Shown piece by piece: positions 1-25,857 of a stretch of DNA of 32,000 bases (positions are counted from its first letter, which is position 1; the number at the start of each line of letters is the position of its first letter). The stretch is taken from positions 1,440,001 through 1,472,000 of the forward strand of contig NZ_CP074694.1 of NCBI RefSeq assembly GCF_018398935.1, read 5' to 3'. The stretch comes from Telmatocola sphagniphila. GTDB taxonomy: Bacteria > Planctomycetota > Planctomycetia > Gemmatales > Gemmataceae. Position numbers and translations under genes: made by a program. The notes under the pieces were generated by a model. That model saw only the letters and a program-made list of their open reading frames with translations, did no database searches and was not told the DNA's origin.

Positions 1-699
1 CGAACCTACTATGCCGACAACTCACCTATTAAATTCGAGAAGATCGGTGAAAATCGAGTTCGATTTACTCCTCCCCCTGAACATTTGTACGAAGTTCAGA
101 AGGTGATGGAGATCGAGCTCGTTGGGGATACCAATAAGGTCAACGTGCATCTGATAGTTTCGAATATCGGGAGCCGTCCTACGGAACTGGCTCCCTGGGG
201 GCCCACCGTCATGGCTCCGGGCGGCATGGAAGTAATACCTCTCCCAGCCAAATTTCCGCATCCCGGCCATCCGAACAATGCCCGTTCTCCGGAAGATTTT
301 GGTCCGAACCAGGAATTGATTCTGTGGCCCTACTTTGATTTCAGCGACAGCCGATGGACTTTCGGGAAGAAATATATTCTTCTCAGACAGGATTCCAAGA
401 AGGGACCTACCAAGATCGGTCTGGCTCATCGGGCCGGCTGGGTGGGTTACGTGAATCGGGGAGCATTGTTCGTAAAACGATTTAACTATATCGAAGGGGC
501 TTTGTATCCGGATCGGGGCACAAATTATCAGACCTTCAGCAATGAAGATATGCTCGAAATGGAAACAGTAGCCCCGCTCGAAGAACTCTTTCCAGACGAA
601 ACGGCGGAGTTGAATGAAACTTGGCAACTCTATCCGTGCGACGCGAAAATCGGCAATGAAGAGGACGTCGACAAATACGTACTTCCTTTGATCAGATAA
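1..699 (+). CDS. hypothetical protein, 5'-partial at window edge (possibly DUF4380 / galactose-mutarotase-like beta-sandwich family)
   Basis: Frame 1 is open from base 1 to TAA 697-699, so the track ORF 85..699 (TTG) is only the tail of a longer gene. The co-directional CBS-PP2C gene follows 32 nt downstream. The family guess is from memory of similar planctomycete proteins; I saw no diagnostic motif. Confidence 0.6.
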   Translation, partial: RTYYADNSPIKFEKIGENRVRFTPPPEHLYEVQKVMEIELVGDTNKVNVHLIVSNIGSRPTELAPWGPTVMAPGGMEVIPLPAKFPHPGHPNNARSPEDFGPNQELILWPYFDFSDSRWTFGKKYILLRQDSKKGPTKIGLAHRAGWVGYVNRGALFVKRFNYIEGALYPDRGTNYQTFSNEDMLEMETVAPLEELFPDETAELNETWQLYPCDAKIGNEEDVDKYVLPLIR

Positions 700-731: not shown

Positions 732-1916
732 GTGTCTAACGATATCAGCGTACGGCAAGTAATGCAGCCCAACCCCGTATCGCTTCGTCCGGATCAGACG
801 ATCCAGGAAGCGATCGGACGAATGAATGAACTTCGTATCGGGGCGGTACTTGTATGCGATAATTCCCGGCTCGTCGGAATTTTCACCGAACGGGATTTCC
901 TGCGAAATGCCGCGATTGCAGAACCCGGCTGGCGTCTCTATCCCATCGAAATGTGGATGACGAAAGATCCACATACCATTGCTCCGAACATTGGTTGGGA
1001 AGAAGCGGCTTTCCAGATGGAGCGCATGCGAGTTCGCCATCTTCCTGTAGTGGAGGATGGCTTAGCAATAGGAATCATTTCTTCGCGCCACTTAATAGCC
1101 CATCGATCCAAGTATCTGGATCAGATGATTGCCCGGAGAACTAGCGAACTTCGGCTGGCCAACGATCAGCTCTTGTCACGCGATGCGGAAATGACCCATT
1201 ACATGAAGGTCGCCGCTAAACTGCAGAAGAAACTGGTGCTTCCTCATAGTCCCCCGAACTGGCCGGAGTTCGACTGGAGCATTTATTTTGCTCCTCTCGA
1301 ACCGCTGGGGGGCGACTACTACGATTTCGTGATGCCGAACGACGAACATCTGGGGTTCCTGATCGCCGATGCCAGTGGCCATAGTATTCCTGCGGCGATG
1401 GTCGCTATCATGGCCAGTCAGGCGTTTACTGAAGTTTCCAAAGAGACTGTGCAGCCTTCGTCTGTACTCGCGGCACTCAACAAGAGGCTGAACGACCTGG
1501 CCGAAGATAGGTTTGTCACAGGATTTTACGGTGTTTTCAATCGCCGTACGCGGGAATTCACGTATGCGAACGCCGGGCATCCATTCCCATTTCACTACTC
1601 CGCAAAACGCAAAATGACTCAGCCACTGTGGGCTCGGGGCTTTTTGCTCGGTGTCAGTCTGGATGAAATGTACACCGAGAAGAGATTGCATCTGGAAGCG
1701 GGCGACCGCCTATGTTTCTTCACAGACGGGATTCCCGATTGTCGAAACGACCAGGGGGAATCTTTCGGTACAGATCGTTTGGCAGCTTTTATCACTGAAA
1801 ATGCCCATCGTCGGCCGGCCGATTTCGTCGAAGTTTTTCGCAATCACCTCAAAGTATTTCGTGAAAATCAAAATCCGACGGACGATATGACGCTTATTAC
1901 ACTCGAAGTTCATTGA
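732..1916 (+). CDS. CBS-pair domain protein fused to a PP2C/SpoIIE-type serine phosphatase
   Basis: GTG start at 732 preceded by AAAGGAAA. N-terminal tandem CBS motifs (VRQVMQPNPVSL...IGAVLVCDNSRLVGIFTERDF; VRHLPVVEDGLAIGIISSRHL), then a helical linker, then a PP2C/SpoIIE core (GGDYYDF, LIADASGHSIPAAM, FFTDG, TDDMTLITLEV). Confidence 0.85.
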   Translation: MSNDISVRQVMQPNPVSLRPDQTIQEAIGRMNELRIGAVLVCDNSRLVGIFTERDFLRNAAIAEPGWRLYPIEMWMTKDPHTIAPNIGWEEAAFQMERMRVRHLPVVEDGLAIGIISSRHLIAHRSKYLDQMIARRTSELRLANDQLLSRDAEMTHYMKVAAKLQKKLVLPHSPPNWPEFDWSIYFAPLEPLGGDYYDFVMPNDEHLGFLIADASGHSIPAAMVAIMASQAFTEVSKETVQPSSVLAALNKRLNDLAEDRFVTGFYGVFNRRTREFTYANAGHPFPFHYSAKRKMTQPLWARGFLLGVSLDEMYTEKRLHLEAGDRLCFFTDGIPDCRNDQGESFGTDRLAAFITENAHRRPADFVEVFRNHLKVFRENQNPTDDMTLITLEVH

Positions 1917-5370: not shown

Positions 5371-6486
5371 TTAGTAAATTCCTAACTGAAGTTGCTTGGC
5401 GAGTTGTGGCGGCACCTGGGGATTTCGCAGTCCATCCGAAATTCCTCCCAGGGCTATCGCTGCTGGAATTGGCGCGACACGCTCTGCCTGATCACGTTCG
5501 AGGACGTTGAGAAGCAGACAGCTTTCATCCAATCGATGCACGAGTAAACGACCTGGTTGGCCGCGGTCACAAGGGACGGGCCTGAATCGCTCGTTATCTG
5601 AATCGTTCTTATCCCATTCGATAACCTGAAAAATGACTCGCTCGCCTAGTGGGTAGTAATCCATTGCCGATCGATATGTATCAACAGTTTCCATAACGAC
5701 TCCGAAGAGACTGTTGCCGTAGCCCGAGAGGTGCACGGCTGCCGGAAAAGCCAGTTTAAAGTCGTTAAGAGTTTGCGGAGAAATGCTCATTCCGCCATAG
5801 TGAATACCATGCAGAGACTCGCGTTGGCGATCCGTCATACGTTCCGCCAGAGCCTTCAGAGTTGGTGGCGTAGTGAATAGTATGCCGATTTCCTCTCGAT
5901 TCAAAATATCCAGGGCCTGAGAGATTACGTGCTGAAGATACCGATCACGAGCCATGGAGCCCTCGGCCAGCCGTTTCACCCAGCGTGGATCGAAGTCCAC
6001 ACTAAAAGGATCCATGCTCCCGGACTGTCTGGCCAGTTCCCTAACGACCTTGCCGATGATGTGTGGTCCAGAGGGACCCAGCCACAGCCAAGGCTCGCTT
6101 TTGGGGAAATGGGTAGCGTCTGCAACTTTCAGAAACGGAGTGATGAACGCTTCCTGAAATTCATCATTGCGAAATGCCGTTGCACATGGTTCGCCGCTCG
6201 TGCCGGCCGTTTCGCCAAGAATGAATTGGGAGAATAAGTGGTGAAATCGCTTAGGAATGAAGGCTTTAACTGGATATTTTCGGAGATCAGAAACCGGCAA
6301 AAGCCCCAATTTCCAGACATCTTTCATCTCTTGAATTTCAGCTTGAATCGACCAGGTCAGTCTCTCCTGCCGTTGCAGCCAATATGTACTGCCCCAGTTA
6401 GGATCCAGATGGATCTCCAAAAGCTCCCGTAACCGAGCGTCTACAGTGCCTTGGGACTTCGATTCTTGCCACGTAGAACTAGTCAC
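5371..6486 (-). CDS. adenylate-forming enzyme, LuxE / PaaK / F390-synthetase-like (acyl-AMP or acyl-protein synthetase)
   Basis: GTG start at 6486, 7 nt after the upstream stop. P-loop-like GETAGTSGEP (6187-6216, compare LuxE SSGTSG and PaaK SSGTTGKP), then LGPSGPH, IHYGGMS, SGYGNSLFG. The length of ~370 aa fits LuxE-type rather than full ANL ligases. Assignment is by motif only. Confidence 0.6.
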   Translation of the reverse strand: MTSSTWQESKSQGTVDARLRELLEIHLDPNWGSTYWLQRQERLTWSIQAEIQEMKDVWKLGLLPVSDLRKYPVKAFIPKRFHHLFSQFILGETAGTSGEPCATAFRNDEFQEAFITPFLKVADATHFPKSEPWLWLGPSGPHIIGKVVRELARQSGSMDPFSVDFDPRWVKRLAEGSMARDRYLQHVISQALDILNREEIGILFTTPPTLKALAERMTDRQRESLHGIHYGGMSISPQTLNDFKLAFPAAVHLSGYGNSLFGVVMETVDTYRSAMDYYPLGERVIFQVIEWDKNDSDNERFRPVPCDRGQPGRLLVHRLDESCLLLNVLERDQAERVAPIPAAIALGGISDGLRNPQVPPQLAKQLQLGIY

Positions 6487-7201: not shown

Positions 7202-8717
7202 CAGCCACCTCCTTGGGTGTCGATGTGCCCACTGGGGTTTCTGTAATAAATTGTCCGAATAAGTAAGCTAATTTGAGACCGGATTCAACGTCGCCTTTGA
7301 TGGCAATTTTCTGCTCGAAGAACGCTTCTTGAGGAGATTGTCTCCCCGAGATAATGGCCGCAAAAGTTTGTGTGTCGGAAATATACTTCACCGTGGCCGA
7401 TTCTGGAATTCCCGGTCGCGTGAAGATCAGTTCTCCCTTTTCCCATTTACATGTCCAACAACCACCTCCCTTGCCAGTAAGTGTTATGGTCACCGTGACG
7501 TCCAATTTCGCTTCTCTCGCCAGATCTGATCGGCGAGCCAATATCGGGAAAGTTTTCTCAATGTAGACGGCACAGGCTGACTCTGAATTTATGGTTCCGG
7601 AATAGCCAGGCTTCCCGGAAGACTTTTTGCCCCAGTGGTCGTTATCAGCAAATCGGATCAGCCTCTCAAGCACCGTTCGATCTATCCGAGGTGGCCGTGC
7701 ATCTGGAAGCTCCGCCAGTAGATTTTCCATGGAAAATAACGGATTTCCTGAAATGTAAGGCCAGTACTCCTGAACCCCCTGGCGAAACAGTTCGTCCAAT
7801 CGGCTGAAAATATTTTTTGCAGGTATTTTTGCAAGTTCGATGTTCGTCAGACGAAGTGTCTCTACGCCGATATCTCGAATGAAACTCGTTTTTATTGGTG
7901 AATCCGAAACCAAGTGGAAGATCTTTCCACCGCTGCTCGATCGGTTAAACAGTTTAAGAATCGTCCGAGCCACCCAATCCACGGGAATGAGATTCCATTC
8001 CTCGTTTCCATCGAAGGGGATTCGCAGTGTTGATGTTGCTAACGTCTTTTGAGGAATAGACCTCGCCAGTCGAACAGCGAGTTCCAGAAAACGATATAGA
8101 CCTGTATAAGTCGTTGTGTAGCCGGTTTCGCTGTCGCCAACGATGATGGAGGGACGGTATATCGTGGAGTGGATTTTTTTTGCATTTCTGACAGCAACTT
8201 CCGCAAGAAATTTGCTCTCTTCGTACGGATTGTGAAATCCTGATTCTCCCGTGGCTTCCTGTTCAAGAATCGTTCCCGATCTTCTGCCGCTTACAAAAGC
8301 GGTCGATATGTGATGCCAATTGGAAACGCTCAATGATTCGCAGAGATCCAGAAGTGCCCGAGTACCGTTTAAATTTGTTTTAAAGGGTTCTTGCTCCGGT
8401 GTTTTCCGAAAGGAGAGATTCGCAGCACAATGTAAAACACTCGAGCAATTTTTCTGAATCCAGTTCTTATCCGCTTTGCTGAGACTCGACTTGAGATCGC
8501 TTAAATCGCCGCAGATAATAAAGGGTTTAGAGAGCTTTTTCTGTAACCTTTCTTCCCATAACTCAACGATTTCTGATATTCGTTCAAAACCATTTGCTTG
8601 CTTAGAATTTCTAACCAGTACAGTTGTAGTGCCCATTCGCTGAAGGAGATCTTTTACTAGATACTGACCGAGAAATCCTGTCGCGCCCGTAAGTAAAACG
8701 CCTCGCTGCTGAGGCAT
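7179..8717 (-). CDS. SDR-family thioester/acyl reductase domain (NAD_binding_4-like) fused to a C-terminal SCP2 sterol-carrier domain
   Basis: The track ORF starts at TTG 8744. The ATG at 8717 has AAGGA 8 nt upstream and leads straight into the Rossmann motif LLTGATGFLG (8667-8690). The catalytic YEESK fits a terminal-reductase-type SDR. The last ~110 aa (approx 7179-7520) read as SCP2 (…QEAFFEQKIAIKGDVESGLKLAYLFGQF). Confidence 0.85.
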   Translation of the reverse strand: MPQQRGVLLTGATGFLGQYLVKDLLQRMGTTTVLVRNSKQANGFERISEIVELWEERLQKKLSKPFIICGDLSDLKSSLSKADKNWIQKNCSSVLHCAANLSFRKTPEQEPFKTNLNGTRALLDLCESLSVSNWHHISTAFVSGRRSGTILEQEATGESGFHNPYEESKFLAEVAVRNAKKIHSTIYRPSIIVGDSETGYTTTYTGLYRFLELAVRLARSIPQKTLATSTLRIPFDGNEEWNLIPVDWVARTILKLFNRSSSGGKIFHLVSDSPIKTSFIRDIGVETLRLTNIELAKIPAKNIFSRLDELFRQGVQEYWPYISGNPLFSMENLLAELPDARPPRIDRTVLERLIRFADNDHWGKKSSGKPGYSGTINSESACAVYIEKTFPILARRSDLAREAKLDVTVTITLTGKGGGCWTCKWEKGELIFTRPGIPESATVKYISDTQTFAAIISGRQSPQEAFFEQKIAIKGDVESGLKLAYLFGQFITETPVGTSTPKEVADVLSSQD

Positions 8718-19330: not shown

Positions 19331-19999
19331 GATTTCTCTCCTTTTTGTTTTGAAACCTGGGCAAAATAATCTTATGAACGTCTACTATACAAAAAAAACA
19401 CATACCTACCACATTTCTACGCTCTTTTTTTTAATTTTTTTATGTTTTCTATGCATAGGTCAAAGTGTTCGACCTTGAAAACTTTATAAGATCTCACCAC
19501 TCGGAGCTTAGTTCCAGTAGCTCGATCGATAGTTTCCAAGAGCGAAGTTTTAGTAAGTGCTGTTCGATGCTAAGCTCTAAATCCGTTAGCGTTATCGATC
19601 AAAGGACGGATCAAAAAGCTTCCGCGAATATCGAGATTTGTTTCAGATAGGAATTCGGGGAGACTCGTTTCTTTATTCGATTTGATCCTTCCATCGTTTG
19701 GGGCTACGGCGGAAAAAGTTTACCGTTTTAGACGCGTCGAACGTCTATAATCACTCTAAGTATTGGGCTACTACATCAGGAGATGGCCAAGCTAAACTGG
19801 AGTCTGCACAAACACTTGAGATTTCAAATTATAGCTATTAGTCGACCCGGTAGTAACAGCAACTTTCCCCTCCTTCCCGTATCGCATTCAATTCGTTTCT
19901 GGGCCCGAGCGAAAATCCTTACAGGATAATCTGAAATGTAACGAGCGACTTTATCTGAGGGATAGTGCTCTTCACTTTTTGCAGCCTGTCCCTTCGCTT

Positions 20000-20015
20000 T
20001 GGCACGACATATGCG
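20000..20015 (+). promoter_or_regulatory. sigma-54-type -24/-12 promoter candidate (TGGCACgacatATGCG)
   Basis: GG (20001-20002) and GC (20013-20014) have the invariant N10 spacing, and the -24 hexamer TGGCAC(G) is perfect. The -12 element is ATGC rather than TTGC. The predicted TSS near 20026 is ~19 nt before ATG 20045 and just upstream of its GGGAAGG SD. Confidence 0.3.
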
Positions 20016-20044
20016 TAAATTTGCGGAAATTCTTTGGGAAGGCT

Positions 20045-21781
20045 ATGAATTATCACGCTTTGGCTACGGATTACGATGGCACGATTGCCACCGATGGGGT
20101 GGTTTTCCCTGAAACACTCGCAGCACTTAAGAAATTCCGAGAATCGGGTCATCGTCTGATACTTGTCACAGGTCGCGAACTTCCCGACCTTTTTTCCACC
20201 TTCAAGCATTCGGAAATTTTTGATCGCATCATCGCCGAAAACGGCGCGGTGCTTTACGATCCGTCGACCAAAGAATCGCGTCTGCTCAGTTCGGCACCTC
20301 CCGAAAGCTTCCTGGAAGAACTCAAGCGTCGTGACATCGCTCCGATCTCGGAGGGCCAGGTGATTGTTGCCACCTGGGAGCCCCATCAGAATGAGGTCCT
20401 GCAGGTTATCCGGGAGATGGGATTGGGCTTGCAGGTGATTTTTAACAAAGGCGCTGTGATGGTTCTGCCCTCCGGCATCAACAAAGCGACGGGTTTGAAC
20501 GCTGCGTTGACCGAACTGAAACTTTCTCCTCACAATGTGGTCGGGGTTGGTGATGCGGAAAACGATCACTCGTTTCTGGAAATATGCGGTTGTTCCGTAG
20601 CTGTGGCAAACGCGCTACCCGCAGTCAAAGATCATTGCGATTTGGTGATGAAGACCGATCACGGAGCGGGAGTTGTCGAACTGATCGAAGGCCTACTCCA
20701 GGGGAGTTTAAACTTCAGCCCATTCAAATCGATTCCGTTGGGAGAGAACGAGAATAATCTGCCCGTTGCGTTGGATCTCTTGAACGAAGCTGTGCTGATT
20801 TGCGGTACGTCCGGTAGCGGGAAGTCGACTTTAGCCACTTCATTACTCGAACGAGTTTCGGCCGAAGGGCTTCAAATAGTGATTTTTGATCCGGAAGGAG
20901 ATTACAACTCGCTCGAGTTTTTAATCTCCCTGGGAAGTCCGGAGCGAATTCCACTCGTGGAGGAAGTCATTGACATCCTTAGGAATCCAGAACGAAATCT
21001 CTCGCTGAATTTGCTCGGAGTCGCCTTGGAGCATCGGCCCGAACTTTTTGCCGAGATGCTCAAACGAGTGTTAGAATTACGTTCTCGGACTGGCCATCCT
21101 CATTTGATCGTTGTCGACGAGACGCATCATTTGCTTCCCACCGATTGGAAGAAAGAACCTCATCTTTTCCAGCGGAATGGCAAGGGGATTCTTTACATTA
21201 CCGTGCACCCGGAATCGGTCGCCCGATCGGTATTAGAAACTGTGAATTCGGTTTTGGTAGTTGGAGAAAATCCTGAAGGTAAGATCCAGGATTTTTGCAG
21301 CGTTATTGACCGCCCGGTCCCTCCATTACCAGTCTTGGAATCCAAGTTGCCTTCAGGAACAGCACTCTTGTATCGCCGTGAACCTGAAGTGCTGTCTCTG
21401 GTCCGTACGGAAAAACCAACTGTACTCAGAAAAAGACATTCCAGAAAATACCCTGAGGGCAATTTGGGACCGGAACGAAGCTTCTATTTCCGAGGTCCCG
21501 ACGATAAGCTGAATCTTAAGGCCCACAATTTGATTCTGTTCGTTCAATTGGCGGATGGAGTTGATGATGAGACCTGGTTATTTCATCTGCATAAACAGGA
21601 CTATTCCGCTTGGCTCCGTCGGTATATCAAGAATTCGGATTTGGCTCTTGAGGTTTCTCAAATCGAACTGGATAAGTCGCTTTCTCCGATAGAATCTCGC
21701 TTAGCCATCCGTCGAGCAATCGAAGCGAATTACACTTTGCCGGCAGACCAACCTTCAGGACGGATCGATCCACAGAAATAG
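20045..21781 (+). CDS. fusion protein: N-terminal HAD-IIB (Cof-type) phosphatase domain + C-terminal HerA/FtsK-clade (DUF87-like) P-loop NTPase domain
   Basis: I prefer the ATG at 20045 (GGGAAGG SD) to TTG 19979. HAD motifs: DYDGT (20069-20083), LVTGR, GVGDAENDHSF. ATPase motifs: Walker A CGTSGSGKST (GTSGSGKST = 20804-20830), IFDPEGDY, Walker B LIVVDETHH (21104-21130). Confidence 0.85.
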   Translation: MNYHALATDYDGTIATDGVVFPETLAALKKFRESGHRLILVTGRELPDLFSTFKHSEIFDRIIAENGAVLYDPSTKESRLLSSAPPESFLEELKRRDIAPISEGQVIVATWEPHQNEVLQVIREMGLGLQVIFNKGAVMVLPSGINKATGLNAALTELKLSPHNVVGVGDAENDHSFLEICGCSVAVANALPAVKDHCDLVMKTDHGAGVVELIEGLLQGSLNFSPFKSIPLGENENNLPVALDLLNEAVLICGTSGSGKSTLATSLLERVSAEGLQIVIFDPEGDYNSLEFLISLGSPERIPLVEEVIDILRNPERNLSLNLLGVALEHRPELFAEMLKRVLELRSRTGHPHLIVVDETHHLLPTDWKKEPHLFQRNGKGILYITVHPESVARSVLETVNSVLVVGENPEGKIQDFCSVIDRPVPPLPVLESKLPSGTALLYRREPEVLSLVRTEKPTVLRKRHSRKYPEGNLGPERSFYFRGPDDKLNLKAHNLILFVQLADGVDDETWLFHLHKQDYSAWLRRYIKNSDLALEVSQIELDKSLSPIESRLAIRRAIEANYTLPADQPSGRIDPQK

Positions 21782-21800
21782 ATCGACTGCGAATGGAAAA

Positions 21801-21826
21801 GGGGCGAGCAGATTACTGCTCTCCCC
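21801..21826. terminator. hairpin between convergent genes (putative bidirectional terminator)
   Basis: GGGGCGAGCAG (21801-21811), loop ATTA, CTGCTCTCCCC (21816-21826): an 11-bp stem with one C/T mismatch. On the minus strand it is followed by TTTTCC. It lies between the stops at 21781 (+) and 21852 (-). Confidence 0.5.
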
Positions 21827-21851
21827 TTCGAAAGAGTTATTTGAACTGGGA

Positions 21852-22373
21852 TTACTTGCCGTCCATTCGTTTCAGGACAACTGTACATACAGATTTATTG
21901 CTGGGACGGTACGAAGAGGACGACTGGTTCGAATTCGTTCCGTTCGTTCCATTGTTTCGGGAAGTTCCATCTTTGTCTTTATCGCCGTGGACGCAGATCG
22001 CAAGGAAGTCTTTCGCCATCACGAACGTACCACTTTTCGCTTCCTTATAGGTAGTTTCATTCGTATTGGCGTTGTTGTTCTGATTGGCGCCAGTTGTGCC
22101 ATCTTTGGCTTCCCAGACCTGAACCATTCCATGAGGCTCGAACTGGATCTTCATCGTTTTGAAATGGGATTGATTGTCGTGACAAGTAATCACATTATTT
22201 TTGATCGTAACCTGTTTATCTTTTAGCTCGGACACAGGTTGACCGTCCTTTTCCAAACAAAGAACAGTCCAGGTGCCATCGAGAGAAGTGGAATCGGTAG
22301 CTTTCTCGGTTTGGCTTGGGGTGGGTGTTTGTCCAACGAATGCTAAAAGACTGCTGCATAGGATCGCGAACAT
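21852..22373 (-). CDS. secreted TIGR03067-like (planctomycete lipocalin-like) protein with N/T/G/S-rich low-complexity insertions
   Basis: The ATG at 22373 has AAGGAG 7 nt upstream (the track ORF extends to 22493). Signal peptide MFAILCSSLLAFVGQ. LDGTWTVLCLEKDGQPV...VTIKNN...GTFVMAKDFLAICV...VVLKR follows the TIGR03067 pattern as I remember it. Confidence 0.6.
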   Translation of the reverse strand: MFAILCSSLLAFVGQTPTPSQTEKATDSTSLDGTWTVLCLEKDGQPVSELKDKQVTIKNNVITCHDNQSHFKTMKIQFEPHGMVQVWEAKDGTTGANQNNNANTNETTYKEAKSGTFVMAKDFLAICVHGDKDKDGTSRNNGTNGTNSNQSSSSYRPSNKSVCTVVLKRMDGK

Positions 22374-22538
22374 GCTGAAACTCCTTGAACCAGAATAGTA
22401 AAAAAGCGTGCCTCTGGTTCTGTGCACGCCTGATTTCGATATTGCCTGCCTTCGGAGAGGAACAAATCCCATCGTTTTAGGTGAGTCCTTCACAGGCTCA
22501 CAAAGTGATGGAATTCAAGCAAATCTTAAGTAATTCGA

Positions 22539-22554
22539 TGCAAGAGTGGTGCCA
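22539..22554 (-). promoter_or_regulatory. sigma-54-type -24/-12 promoter, perfect consensus (TGGCACcactcTTGCA)
   Basis: The minus strand reads TTTGAC-TGGCAC-CACTC-TTGCA-T, which matches TGGCAC-N5-TTGCW with GG-N10-GC spacing. It is intergenic and points at the 22373 start; the predicted TSS near 22528 gives a ~155-nt leader. Confidence 0.55.
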
Positions 22555-22822
22555 GTCAAATTCGATTAGCTCGATTACATCAATCGCTCACATTGAGATA
22601 TTTCTACCTATTGGATCGGGTCTATTAGGGGCGTTCATCTCAAGAGCAAAATCTGCAATGTAGGTTATAGTTCGGATATTTTAATATGCAGTAAACAATA
22701 ATAGGTGAATCTGATTTCTTAGTACTGCGCAGCTCACTTCCCAAAAAATTGGATATCCCATTCGCTGTAGGTCGAAGCTCTTAAAAATGGTAAATTTCAC
22801 TAAATATAATTTATATTTGCGG

Positions 22823-22838
22823 TGGCACAGTATCTGCT
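22823..22838 (+). promoter_or_regulatory. sigma-54-type -24/-12 promoter candidate (TGGCACagtatCTGCT)
   Basis: Perfect -24 hexamer, correct GG-N10-GC spacing, -12 element CTGCT (4/5). The predicted TSS near 22849 is 30-40 nt before the 22878/22890 start. It is divergent from the 22554 promoter. Confidence 0.4.
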
Positions 22839-22889
22839 ATTTTCATATTTAAGATAATCAATGACAATCCTTATTAGTTGAGCATAGTA

Positions 22890-23363
22890 ATGAATTTCCT
22901 TGATATCGTTGATGCCACTCCTTCGGGGTCATCATCTAAAAATTATACGTTGCATTCACTTATTCGCTGCGAGCGAGCTGCTATCCACGCTTACGAGAAA
23001 ACGCTCGAAAGGTATCGGTGCGAATCACTCGCCTTCTATCTCAATCGGCTTAATGATGATCATCGAGAATTATTAGGTGAGTTGGAATCTTACAGAAATG
23101 AGGGTCTTTCTCACGATATTGCCCTTTTAGGTCCATGGAATTCTTTCGAAAAGATATCTTCAGTATGGGCATGCGATTTAGATAACGCCCTTTTATTTGA
23201 GTTGAAAGCGGCCGAAGCGGATTTGATACATTTCTATGAGGATGCTCTTGCTTCCACTCAACTCGACTCCGAAAGTCGGAAGCTGCTTAGATCCAAGCTC
23301 ATACCCTGGGGTTGGGATCATATCACGGAATTGGATTGGCTGATTGGACTGGAAGCGGCATAA
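22890..23363 (+). CDS. four-helix-bundle protein, ferritin-like / DUF2383 (PA2169)-type, function unknown
   Basis: ATG at 22890; the in-frame TTG at 22878 is the track start, and neither has a clear SD. Two repeats of the helix-pair pattern (CERAAIHAYEKTLERY...DDHRELLGELESY and ELKAAEADLIHFYEDALAS...) resemble DUF2383. The family call is tentative. Confidence 0.5.
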   Translation: MNFLDIVDATPSGSSSKNYTLHSLIRCERAAIHAYEKTLERYRCESLAFYLNRLNDDHRELLGELESYRNEGLSHDIALLGPWNSFEKISSVWACDLDNALLFELKAAEADLIHFYEDALASTQLDSESRKLLRSKLIPWGWDHITELDWLIGLEAA

Positions 23364-23604: not shown

Positions 23605-25128
23605 ATGGGCTGGAATAAAGAACGGCTACAAGAGGTGGCCCATAGCAGACTTGCCGGAGCGAAACTTATTATGGTGGTGAATAGAGAGCCCTACATTCAC
23701 CTTCATCAAAAAGAAAGAATTCATTGGATTCGACCCGCCGGTGGATTGACCACTGCTTTAGATCCAGTGATGCAGGCCTGCGGCGCGTTGTGGGTTGCCC
23801 ATGGCTCGGGCGATGCCGATCAGGAAGTTTCGGACGCAAAAGGGCGCATTGGAGTGCCCCCGGACGATCCGCGATATACCCTGAAGCGAATTTGGCTCAC
23901 TCTCAATGAAGAGAAGGGGTACTACTACGGCTTCGCCAATAGCAGTCTCTGGCCTCTGTGCCATCAGGTTTACTCTCGACCCACTTTCGATCCCGATCAT
24001 TGGGATATTTATCGCCGGGTTAACCATAAATTCGCTGAATCGATTTTAGAAGAGGTGGGAAACGAGCCGGCCTTGGTTTTTGTTCAGGATTATCATTTTG
24101 CGTTGCTTCCCAAAATTCTGAAAGACGCGCGGCCCGATCTCGTGGTGGCACAATTCTGGCATATCCCCTGGCCCAGCCCGGAGGTGTTTCGAGTATGTCC
24201 CTGGTATCAGGAGATTATCGAGGGAATGCTGGGAAATGATCTTCTGGCTTTTCACATTCAGAATCACTGTAATAATTTCCTGGATACAGTGGATCGAACT
24301 TTGGAGTGCCGGCTGGATTGGGAACATTTCAGCGTTTTGCGTAACGGCCATACCACGCGCGTGCGTCCCCATCCCATCAGTGTAGATCCTACTCTGAGCG
24401 AGGAGTATCTGGATCAGGACTGGCAGATTCGAGCCCGTCAATTTCGAGATAAATATCAATTAGGCGATCGAAAGCTGATCGTGGGAGTTGATCGACTGGA
24501 TTACACCAAGGGAATTCCTGAGCGGCTTCGGGCCGTCGATCGATTACTCATGACTCATCCGGAATGGGTGGAGAATTTTCATTTCGTTCAGATTGCCGCT
24601 CCCAGTCGAACGCTTCTGGATGCTTACCAATCCCTAACTCAAGAGGTTCAGACTCTCGTCGATGAGATTAACTTGAGATATGGGTCCTCCCATTGGCAAC
24701 CCGTTCTCTTTCTGAACGAACATCTCGGCCCCGAGGATGTCGCCGTCCTTTACAGGATGTCGGAGGGATGTGTGGTAAGTTCTCTTCACGATGGCATGAA
24801 CTTGGTTGCCAAAGAATTTGTCTGTGCCCGATCTGATGAGCAAGGTGTACTGGTTTTATCTGAATTTACCGGTGCGGCCCGCGAGTTGACCGATGCGATT
24901 ATCGTCAATCCCTATGATGTTTCGCAGCTTTCGGATGGCATGCATTCGATACTGACAATGCCTGCCGCGGAGCAGTCTAAACGCATGAAAAAGATGAGAG
25001 CCGAGGTACAGGACAAGAATATTTATCGATGGGCAGGCATGCTGCTCTCTGAGGCTTTGAAACTCGTGGAATCTACTCCGAGCGAAAACTTGGAAAAAGA
25101 GAGTCTTAGCACAGAATTTGCTGCGTAA
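23605..25128 (+). CDS. otsA: GT20-family glycosyltransferase: trehalose-6-phosphate synthase (glucosylglycerol-phosphate synthase-like subgroup not excluded)
   Basis: ATG at 23605 with GGAGG 6 nt upstream. GT20 hallmarks: [62 protein letters not shown]. The NREPY-type N-terminus also occurs in GgpS, so the acceptor specificity is uncertain. Confidence 0.85.
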
Positions 25129-25186: not shown

Positions 25187-25226
25187 GGGAGAAGTCGTTC
25201 AACGGCTTCTCCCCTTTTATTTTTCT
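25187..25226 (+). terminator. rho-independent terminator after the GT20 gene
   Basis: GGGAGAAGTCGTT (from 25187) pairs with AACGGCTTCTCCC (to 25213), a GC-rich stem of ~11-13 bp including one G-U. It is followed by CTTTTATTTTTCTC. It also lies 35 nt beyond the stop of the convergent 25248 gene. Confidence 0.7.
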
Positions 25227-25247: not shown

Positions 25248-25475
25248 TTATTTCGTGGAAGGTCCCGTGGGATCTTCGAGATCCAGAACTTCATCCCGAT
25301 CGGATGTGTGCAGCTCTCTCGGTAACTGATTGGCGACCCGGTGAGGATATCGGCTTGGATCCCCCGTTTGCTGATCGGCCACCTTTCGCATCAGGAAATT
25401 GATCGCTACAAGAGCGATGGCAAACAAAATAGCCACCACAATCCAGAATAGGGTCGATTCCAGCAACTTTTCCAT
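25248..25475 (-). CDS. small single-pass membrane protein (75 aa), function unknown
   Basis: The ATG at 25475 has AAGGAGG 5 nt upstream (the track ORF extends to 25544). It has one hydrophobic helix (STLFWIVVAILFAIALVAINFLM) and an acidic tail. Confidence 0.55.
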   Translation of the reverse strand: MEKLLESTLFWIVVAILFAIALVAINFLMRKVADQQTGDPSRYPHRVANQLPRELHTSDRDEVLDLEDPTGPSTK

Positions 25476-25857
25476 GGCATCCTCCTTGTAGCCCGGCTCG
25501 CAACTCACCGCTGAATTTGGTGCTATTGTAAGCCTATCCAGCATTCCTGCAATTCAAAATTTAATTACGTTACGCTTGAGTCCCAGTTTCAGGCTGGCCA
25601 GAAATTGCCCAGAATCCGCTCAGTAGCCCGATTTCGTACGTTCGAAGTTATCGATCAACGTCAAAAAAAGCATTTGCTATGGCCCAACTTTGTTATGATA
25701 ATCACTGCTTACTCCTACCTGAATGCCGGCTGAAACCATTGTCGGCGCGGACCTGTTGATTCCTCCGTAATTGTTTGTTGGTGCGAATTGGCCTTTGCAA
25801 AAAGTTCGGTTCGAAGTGATTTCGCCCTCTTCATTCATCGCGTTCATCAGGATTGCC

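Follow-up and report, generated by a model that had tools for sequence, protein, structure and literature searches.

The sigma-54 holoenzyme binds its promoters as a closed complex, and transcription begins only after an ATP-hydrolysing enhancer-binding protein (EBP) has remodelled that complex. Studholme and Dixon are reported to have predicted, in 2004, the sigma-54 regulon of one planctomycete, Pirellula sp. strain 1 (reference 27 of PMC12316311). Of 33 Planctomycetia genera, 32 have rpoN, and a genome carries on average 21.5 EBPs (PMC12316311 S1/S8); the rpoN gene of Rhodopirellula baltica (RB6491) is expressed (PMC2754498), and the predicted sigma-54 targets of the class are enriched for stress functions, namely MscS channels, UspA, chaperones and proteases (PMC12316311). 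Here we analyse a 32,000-nucleotide (nt) stretch of Telmatocola sphagniphila DNA (contig NZ_CP074694.1, positions 1,440,001 to 1,472,000; hereafter the window), in which three motifs of the sigma-54 -24/-12 type lie before genes for a TIGR03067-like protein (site 1), a DUF2383 four-helix protein (site 2) and a fusion of a HAD-IIB phosphatase with a P-loop ATPase (HAD::ATPase, site 3). The window is planctomycete-like in gene content (DUF1559, DUF1552, PSD-domain and 3-keto-disaccharide-hydrolase genes) and has a G+C content of ~0.49. Its putative promoters share both phylum and promoter type with the Planctomycetota regulons predicted in PMC12316311, in whose main text we saw trehalose, compatible solutes, COG0380, COG0561 or COG0433 nowhere named among the targets; in the literature we found no paper linking DUF2383, trehalose genes or the HAD::ATPase to sigma-54.

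We find that the three motifs are probably functional sigma-54 promoters (Table 1), with confidence in this reading highest for sites 2 and 3. The consensus against which they are judged is TGGCAC-N5-TTGCW (the compilation of Barrios et al. 1999 as re-collected in PMC12316311 S2 Table). Reading the window sequence bears out the coordinates and strands that an earlier note on this DNA had given for all three motifs, the GG-N10-GC spacing it described in each and the perfect match it claimed for site 1. As it also stated, the motifs are intergenic and each is oriented toward a nearby start codon; from motif end to ATG the distance is 29 nt for site 3, 51 nt for site 2 and 165 nt for site 1. Its calls for the nearby genes (HAD::ATPase, TIGR03067-like, four-helix and the GT20 sugar-phosphate synthase) agree with our profile searches, and its description of the spacer between the divergent sites 1 and 2 as AT-rich fits a G+C content of 0.33-0.42 there against ~0.49 for the window. 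From the motifs we infer binding by sigma-54 and transcription start sites (TSSs) near 22528 (site 1), 22849 (site 2) and 20026 (site 3). Like canonical sigma-54 promoters, the three have GG and GC exactly 10 nt apart and precede start codons; unlike the canonical set, they lack an EBP gene next door and an upstream activator sequence that can be recognised, and they are known from sequence alone. Site 3 departs from the canonical consensus by A for T at -15 and G for A/T at -11.

Table 1. Coordinates of the features discussed, in window positions; minus-strand features run from the higher to the lower position.
Feature	Position	Strand	Basis or remark
Site 1, putative sigma-54 -24/-12 element TGGCACCACTCTTGCA	22554->22539	minus	0 mismatches; 16/16 of extended consensus
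Site 2, putative sigma-54 -24/-12 element TGGCACAGTATCTGCT	22823-22838	plus	1 mismatch; 15/16 of extended consensus
Site 3, putative sigma-54 -24/-12 element TGGCACGACATATGCG	20000-20015	plus	2 mismatches; 14/16 of extended consensus
Spacer between divergent sites 1 and 2	22555-22822		268 nt; activator sites expected here
HAD-IIB phosphatase::HerA/DUF87-type P-loop ATPase fusion gene, 578 amino acids	20045-21781	plus	Pfam, NCBIfam
TIGR03067-like secreted-protein gene, 173 amino acids	22373->21852	minus	NCBIfam, below cut-off
Terminator-like hairpin in the site 1 leader: GCGUGC, 12-nt loop, GCACGC, U6	22430->22400	minus	centroid fold
Divergent DUF2383/TIGR02284 ferritin-like four-helix-bundle gene, 157 amino acids	22890-23363	plus	remote homology
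GT20 (OtsA-like) sugar-phosphate synthase gene	23605-25128	plus	PF00982, 8.6e-126, 420.9 bits
Intrinsic-terminator-like hairpin closing the GT20 transcription unit	25187-25213	plus	12-pair stem, then T-run

How often would such motifs arise by chance? The earlier note expected 0.015 perfect matches; because W is two-fold degenerate, this figure has to be raised to ~0.03 for the window, and for the intergenic DNA of the window alone it is ~0.004. With at most one mismatch we count 4 matches against 0.74 expected, a number reached in none of 100 shuffles. The core TGGCAC-N6-TGC likewise gives 4 matches against 0.16 expected (0 of 100 shuffles), this core having been picked post hoc with the sites already seen. 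To grade the sites we use two independent matrices, one derived from 57 validated promoters of E. coli and Desulfomicrobium (PMC12316311 S2 Table; the literature matrix) and one after a Barrios-type compilation (the Barrios-type matrix), and compare both with 300 shuffles (dinucleotide shuffles for the literature matrix). Site 1 scores 18.6 bits, site 2 17.9 and site 3 13.4 by the literature matrix (16.6, 16.95 and 13.9 bits by the Barrios-type one). The training promoters of the former have quartiles of 14.1, 16.0 and 17.4 bits and a 5th percentile of 9.0; sites 1 and 2 exceed the 75th percentile of these validated promoters and site 3 lies inside their range. At 17 bits or more we observe 2 matches against 0.047 expected (2 reached in 0 of 300 shuffles), at 13 bits or more 5 against 1.05 (5 reached in 1 of 300), and with the Barrios-type matrix at 13.8 bits or more 4 against 0.43 (0 of 300). 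Intergenic DNA makes up 13% of the window, yet it holds three of the five best literature-matrix matches, all of them facing start codons.

Besides sites 1-3, three further matches in the window score above ~12 bits, at 24146, 25475 and 25107, and we reject each as a promoter. The match at 24146-24161 is intragenic and is rejected because its sequence is the codons for VAQFWH, a conserved GT20 motif. The one at 25475-25490 (13.9 bits), a candidate fourth promoter, is the reverse complement of the AAGGAGG...ATG of a minus-strand open reading frame (ORF), and the one at 25107-25122 lacks the GG. The ORF in question, 25248-25477 (minus), encodes ~75 amino acids with a hydrophobic N-terminal segment behind a strong AAGGAGG ribosome-binding site, and its start region, read on the other strand, resembles a sigma-54 motif.

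Site 3 is the weakest motif match of the three but has the best comparative support. As the collections contain no close relatives whose orthologous intergenic regions could be aligned, conservation was tested by gene family. In 10 of 11 planctomycete HAD::ATPase loci, whose proteins are 40-54% identical to that of the window, the best sense-strand match upstream of the gene is a GG-N10-GC element. It lies 59-63 nt before the start codon in L028, L034, L063 and L066, 40 nt before it in L026, 16 nt in L074 and ~340-370 nt upstream in the Anatilimnocola clade (L002, L005, L007). By the literature matrix, 6 of the 11 loci have an upstream score of at least 10 bits, compared with 6% of random 400-nt windows. 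Across the 71 scorable HAD::ATPase loci of all phyla, 5.6% reach at least 14 bits upstream, as do 0.5% of random windows; the signal comes mainly from Planctomycetota, and the cyanobacterial homologues have no upstream sigma-54 signal.

The neighbourhoods of these HAD::ATPase genes contain further motifs of the same kind. In the Anatilimnocola loci a sigma-54-like motif is also conserved before the BON-domain gene that runs divergent from the HAD::ATPase unit, at L007:5277-5292(-), L005:5276-5291(-) and L002:762-777(-); in L005 and L007 it stands 52-74 nt from the probable ATG of that gene. This divergent pair has the same layout as that of the window. More strong sigma-54-like motifs surround the gene in L056, a locus from a Pirellula metagenome-assembled genome with a G+C content of 0.49 (5791-5806(-), 7873-7888(+) and 248-263(-)), one of them 60 nt before a Pyrid_ox_like (general-stress-protein-26-type) gene divergent from the HAD::ATPase gene. 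Another stands 211 nt before a gene for a 229-residue membrane protein. As a separate observation, a small ORF of ~48-72 codons lies between motif and HAD::ATPase gene in two loci, L005:5725-5940(+) and L007:5720-5938(+); it is conserved between them (...ARIRNxWSxDEKxDRxHQALLFQQQLLQxCGLVPSDGLEDVITV) and has no Pfam match.

The protein encoded behind site 3 matches Pfam PF08282 (8.5e-29), PF01935 (8e-13) and the NCBIfam HAD-IIB profile, and a C-terminal region is conserved besides the HAD and ATPase domains. Its sugar-phosphatase homologues in the PDB span only residues 1-229. Homologues, at 40-56% identity with the best match at 54-56%, are spread over many phyla.

For site 2 the comparison has to reach further. 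The DUF2383 protein falls short of the gathering cut-off of Pfam PF09537 (19.8 bits against 30.8, E = 9e-4, residues 20-68), and a word-indexed search with it returned no high-identity relative beyond itself; an exhaustive search returned 84 full-length remote homologues. PF09537 (DUF2383/TIGR02284) is matched by 29 of 30 aligned homologues, residues of a metal-site type are invariant (E28, H58, E109) or nearly so (E117, H144) in the family, and the family profile matches PDB 4etr and a designed di-iron protein. Taken together, these matches and conserved residues argue that the product of 22890-23363 is a divergent member of the ferritin-like di-iron four-helix bundles. A single-sequence AlphaFold2 model gives four long helices at a predicted confidence (pLDDT) of 56, too poor for a fold search.

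We compare seven distinct DUF2383 loci, counting L163 and L164 as one. In four of them (L163/L164, L165, L169, L170) a sigma-54-like element lies 47-57 nt before the DUF2383 start, a range that includes the distance seen at site 2; in two more (L167, L168) a motif precedes the first gene of a same-strand run by 57-64 nt, and L162 has no motif upstream. Locus L165 carries a divergent pair of 18.3 bits toward a DUF4142 gene and 12.8 bits toward DUF2383, the same layout as sites 1 and 2. A striking arrangement is that of L163/L164 and L169 (GCA_043744775.1, contig JAYTUC010000208.1), where genes for an NtrC/AtoC-type EBP and a histidine kinase of the CHASE3-PAS type come first, and behind them a LEA-like gene, DUF2383, DUF1328 and a gene for a GH13 enzyme. 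Tandem sigma-54 motifs, three in number and one per successive intergenic gap, occur here (L163:2397-3508, L164:641-1752, L169:3429-4505); they stand before the LEA-like gene, before DUF2383, and before DUF1328 with the GH13 gene. When L163 is aligned with L169, the first two motifs appear as conserved islands in diverged spacers, the third falling outside the aligned stretch. These clusters are like the window in having DUF2383 with a motif ~50 nt upstream, several putative sigma-54 promoters within 1-2 kb, and then a carbohydrate enzyme whose substrates may be storage or protective sugars. They are unlike it in that the EBP and kinase genes adjoin, the promoters are tandem rather than divergent, and no HAD::ATPase, TIGR03067-like or GT20 gene is present. 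The LEA-like protein of L163, L164 and L169 is a repeat protein rich in K, A and D.

Two broader results concern claims of the earlier note. Of the refuting conditions it named, all those that the analysis could reach, directly or by proxy, turned out in favour of its reading. It had tied its reading to motif conservation upstream of homologues, and this part holds for the HAD::ATPase (10 of 11) and DUF2383 (4 of 7, with two more at the start of a run) and fails for the TIGR03067-like gene (0 of 1) and for GT20. It had also expected real promoters to be commoner between genes than inside them. Planctomycete loci, used as a proxy for the genome, agree: strong matches are ~9 times denser in intergenic DNA, and in 136 kb, a sample biased toward the HAD::ATPase neighbourhood, 9 of the 17 matches of at least 13 bits lie in the 10.7% that is intergenic. 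In 114 kb of loci from cyanobacteria and Melainabacteria, which are expected to lack sigma-54, none of the 13 strong matches is intergenic.

A number of results weigh against the sigma-54 reading or limit it. With up to two mismatches the pattern is not enriched (16 matches in the window against 12.6 expected), so that loose matches are uninformative here. Four of the ten planctomycete HAD::ATPase motifs score below 10 bits by the literature matrix; three begin with C for T, a change that the small training set penalises heavily, and the fourth (L056) reads TGGTCC. The DUF2383 loci are distant relatives (25-35% identity, mostly without an assigned taxon) and not orthologues, which places the comparative support for site 2 at the family level rather than the orthologue level. 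Site 1 is supported by its perfect match and by nothing comparative: the only homologue found for the TIGR03067-like protein (L161, 36% identity) has no sigma-54 motif upstream. At 80 GT20 homologues there is no upstream sigma-54 enrichment. A sigma-70-like TTAAAA-18-TATAAT (10 of 12 positions) at 22781-22810 on the plus strand, 13 nt upstream of site 2, could serve the DUF2383 gene as a promoter in place of site 2 or alongside it. Finally, the six-frame translation of the window is without GAFTGA, and the window therefore has no EBP gene, as the earlier note had said. A search for words and inverted repeats in 19700-19999 against 22555-22822 gave nothing above shuffles, and a k-mer search of the 11 orthologous upstream regions gave no common activator site above shuffles. 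A 12-of-13 word, AATCTG[A/C]AATGTA, found at 19928 and 22650, is marginal.

These last results bear on how far the three promoters belong together. The earlier note proposed them as a small candidate regulon, and for one shared activator we find no support in the form of a shared upstream site; given this and the ~21 EBPs per Planctomycetia genome, control by a single activator is unproven. It is indeed quite possible, if somewhat short of probable, that the sigma-54 promoters are real and nevertheless form no single regulon, being served by separate EBPs that answer separate signals, with their proximity incidental and GT20 transcribed from a sigma-70 promoter of its own. The abundance of EBPs and the lack of any shared upstream word or repeat are what such an arrangement would give. 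So is the gene order elsewhere, for in 80 loci the HAD::ATPase is never syntenic with the DUF2383, TIGR03067-like or GT20 genes, and no DUF2383 or TIGR03067-like gene occurs near GT20 at its 80 homologues. The GT20 gene, moreover, has its own strong Shine-Dalgarno sequence, and the 241-nt gap before it contains no sigma-54 motif on the plus strand. On the other side, L163 and L169 place three neighbouring sigma-54 promoters beside a single EBP gene, and divergent pairs recur at the HAD::ATPase gene, with the BON-domain gene as partner in three loci and the Pyrid_ox_like gene in L056; together these suggest clusters with a common theme.

That GT20 is a downstream member of the transcript from site 2 is possible but unproven. 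On the plus strand, the gap before the gene shows no terminator-like site. The protein scores 434.6 bits with TIGR02400, below the equivalog cut-off of 564.85, and its sugar product is therefore not established. A possible link to the HAD::ATPase comes from five metagenomic loci (L093, L105, L109, L114, L143) in which a stand-alone HAD-IIB phosphatase, at ~5550-6225 or 2195-2893, sits beside GT20: directly downstream and convergent in the first four, and ~1.1 kb upstream on the opposite strand in L143. This enzyme is 42-57% identical to residues 1-218 of the window fusion (to residue 245 in L143), and its position beside GT20 hints that GT20 may have its phosphatase partner in the HAD domain of the fusion. 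The closest GT20 homologue, in L081, is 70% identical, in DNA with a G+C content of 0.73. Upstream of that gene, in non-coding DNA, stands TGGTACATCCCTTGCG (L081:189-204(+)), which starts 113 nt and ends 98 nt before the GT20 start codon and scores 13.8 bits by the Barrios-type matrix and less than 10 by the literature matrix.

Downstream of site 1 the transcript would carry a leader of ~155 nt before the start codon of the TIGR03067-like gene, and this leader holds the terminator-like hairpin of Table 1. The gene has a strong AAGGAG Shine-Dalgarno sequence 7 nt before its ATG at 22373; its product scores 24.3 bits with NCBIfam TIGR03067 against a curated cut-off of 40.15, so the name denotes resemblance only. 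One may ask whether site 1 mainly yields a leader or small RNA of ~125 nt that ends at the hairpin, with conditional read-through into the gene (attenuation). The length of the leader and the run UUUUUU behind the GCGUGC/GCACGC stem in the centroid fold would suit such a mechanism, as would the minimum-free-energy fold, in which the hairpin loop AGAACCAGA pairs with UCUGGUUC, a stretch that directly precedes the Shine-Dalgarno sequence; this pairing and the hairpin exclude each other. Folding of the whole leader, however, does not stand out statistically (z = -1.3; 22 of 200 shuffles do as well), a 12-nt loop is long for a terminator, and an Rfam scan of the window and of the leaders found no family. 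We regard attenuation as unlikely.

It is very improbable that the motifs are chance or non-functional look-alikes and that the genes use sigma-70 or ECF-type (extracytoplasmic function) promoters in the same AT-rich intergenic DNA, since the sigma-70-like match near site 2, the lack of enrichment at two mismatches and the three window matches explained by coding or Shine-Dalgarno sequence, which would speak for this, have to be set against two matches of at least 17 bits that no shuffle reproduced, the ~0.004 perfect matches expected in intergenic DNA, the recurrence of the motif at similar distances before HAD::ATPase and DUF2383 homologues, and a sigma-70 scan that finds 9 matches where shuffles give 9.4.

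Some features of the DNA around the sites are recorded here for their own sake. Sites 1 and 2 have in common the heptamer TTAAGAT (22523-22529 (-) and 22849-22855 (+)), offset 10-17 nt past the motif and thus around the predicted TSS; site 3 is without it, and the DNA being AT-rich, the sharing may be due to chance. The HAD::ATPase gene is preceded by an unusually long gene-free stretch, 19331-20044 (714 nt), which matches no Rfam family and has no ORF longer than 63 codons. Within it lies an inverted repeat, TCCTTACA-N13-TGTAACGA, at 19916-19944, ~100 nt upstream of the TSS predicted for site 3. In L161, the high-GC contig with the homologue of the TIGR03067-like gene, CGGCACCCGGTTTGCG occurs at 1889-1904(-), in a short gap and ~60 nt before a gene for a DUF892 (YciE/YciF-type ferritin-like) protein; the window four-helix protein has no sequence link to this DUF892 protein.

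Returning to the reading that we prefer, RNA polymerase with sigma-54 (RpoN) would read all three sites, remodelled by an EBP encoded outside the window. Site 3 would drive the HAD-IIB::ATPase gene as a monocistronic unit. Site 2 would drive the di-iron DUF2383 gene and perhaps read through into GT20, and site 1, divergent from it, would drive the leader and then the gene for the TIGR03067-like secreted protein. The promoters themselves are of an ordinary, well-known kind, and what the analysis adds is the pattern across genomes, by which a sigma-54 stress-protection set in Planctomycetota becomes directly testable. Few bacterial promoters can be predicted from sequence; those of sigma-54 can, so that each good one is also a regulatory handle on uncharacterised genes, and in the window this handle falls on three poorly understood ones. 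The HAD-IIB::ATPase fusion, found in many phyla, keeps its sigma-54 element across planctomycete homologues that are only 40-54% identical. The DUF2383/LEA-like/EBP clusters, in turn, suggest a candidate type of activator, a response regulator of the NtrC family with a CHASE3-PAS kinase as its partner.

As to the signal, in related loci sigma-54 motifs precede LEA-like, DUF2383, DUF1328, BON-domain and general-stress-protein-26-like genes, and DUF2383 travels with LEA-like and DUF1328 genes. By analogy, we infer that the window cluster may belong to a stress-protection response dependent on sigma-54, with osmotic or desiccation stress as the inducing condition. Such a set may comprise HAD-IIB::ATPase, DUF2383/DUF892 di-iron, LEA-like, BON-domain and general-stress-protein-26-like proteins together with sugar-phosphate synthases. 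Planctomycetota are not known to have a general-stress sigma factor of the RpoS or SigB type. A tentative proposal, which we hold to be rather doubtful in its full form, is that these bacteria switch on their desiccation and osmotic protection set through sigma-54 and NtrC-type activators, with the window as a local instance and the HAD::ATPase as an ancient core target that is possibly the phosphatase partner of GT20. The possible sigma-54 stress-protection gene set is a modest lead.

A further known counterpart, a functional analogy only, is found in Escherichia coli. Its RpoS-dependent osmotic and stationary-phase genes include otsBA, osmY (BON domains) and yciEF (DUF892 ferritin-like), and they encode the same kinds of product that we find here and in the related loci: a trehalose-phosphate synthase, a sugar phosphatase, a ferritin-like four-helix protein and a BON-domain protein. 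The two systems differ in how these genes would be switched on, in that RpoS is a sigma-70-family factor and needs no ATP-dependent activator, whereas the planctomycete promoters proposed here would each wait for one.

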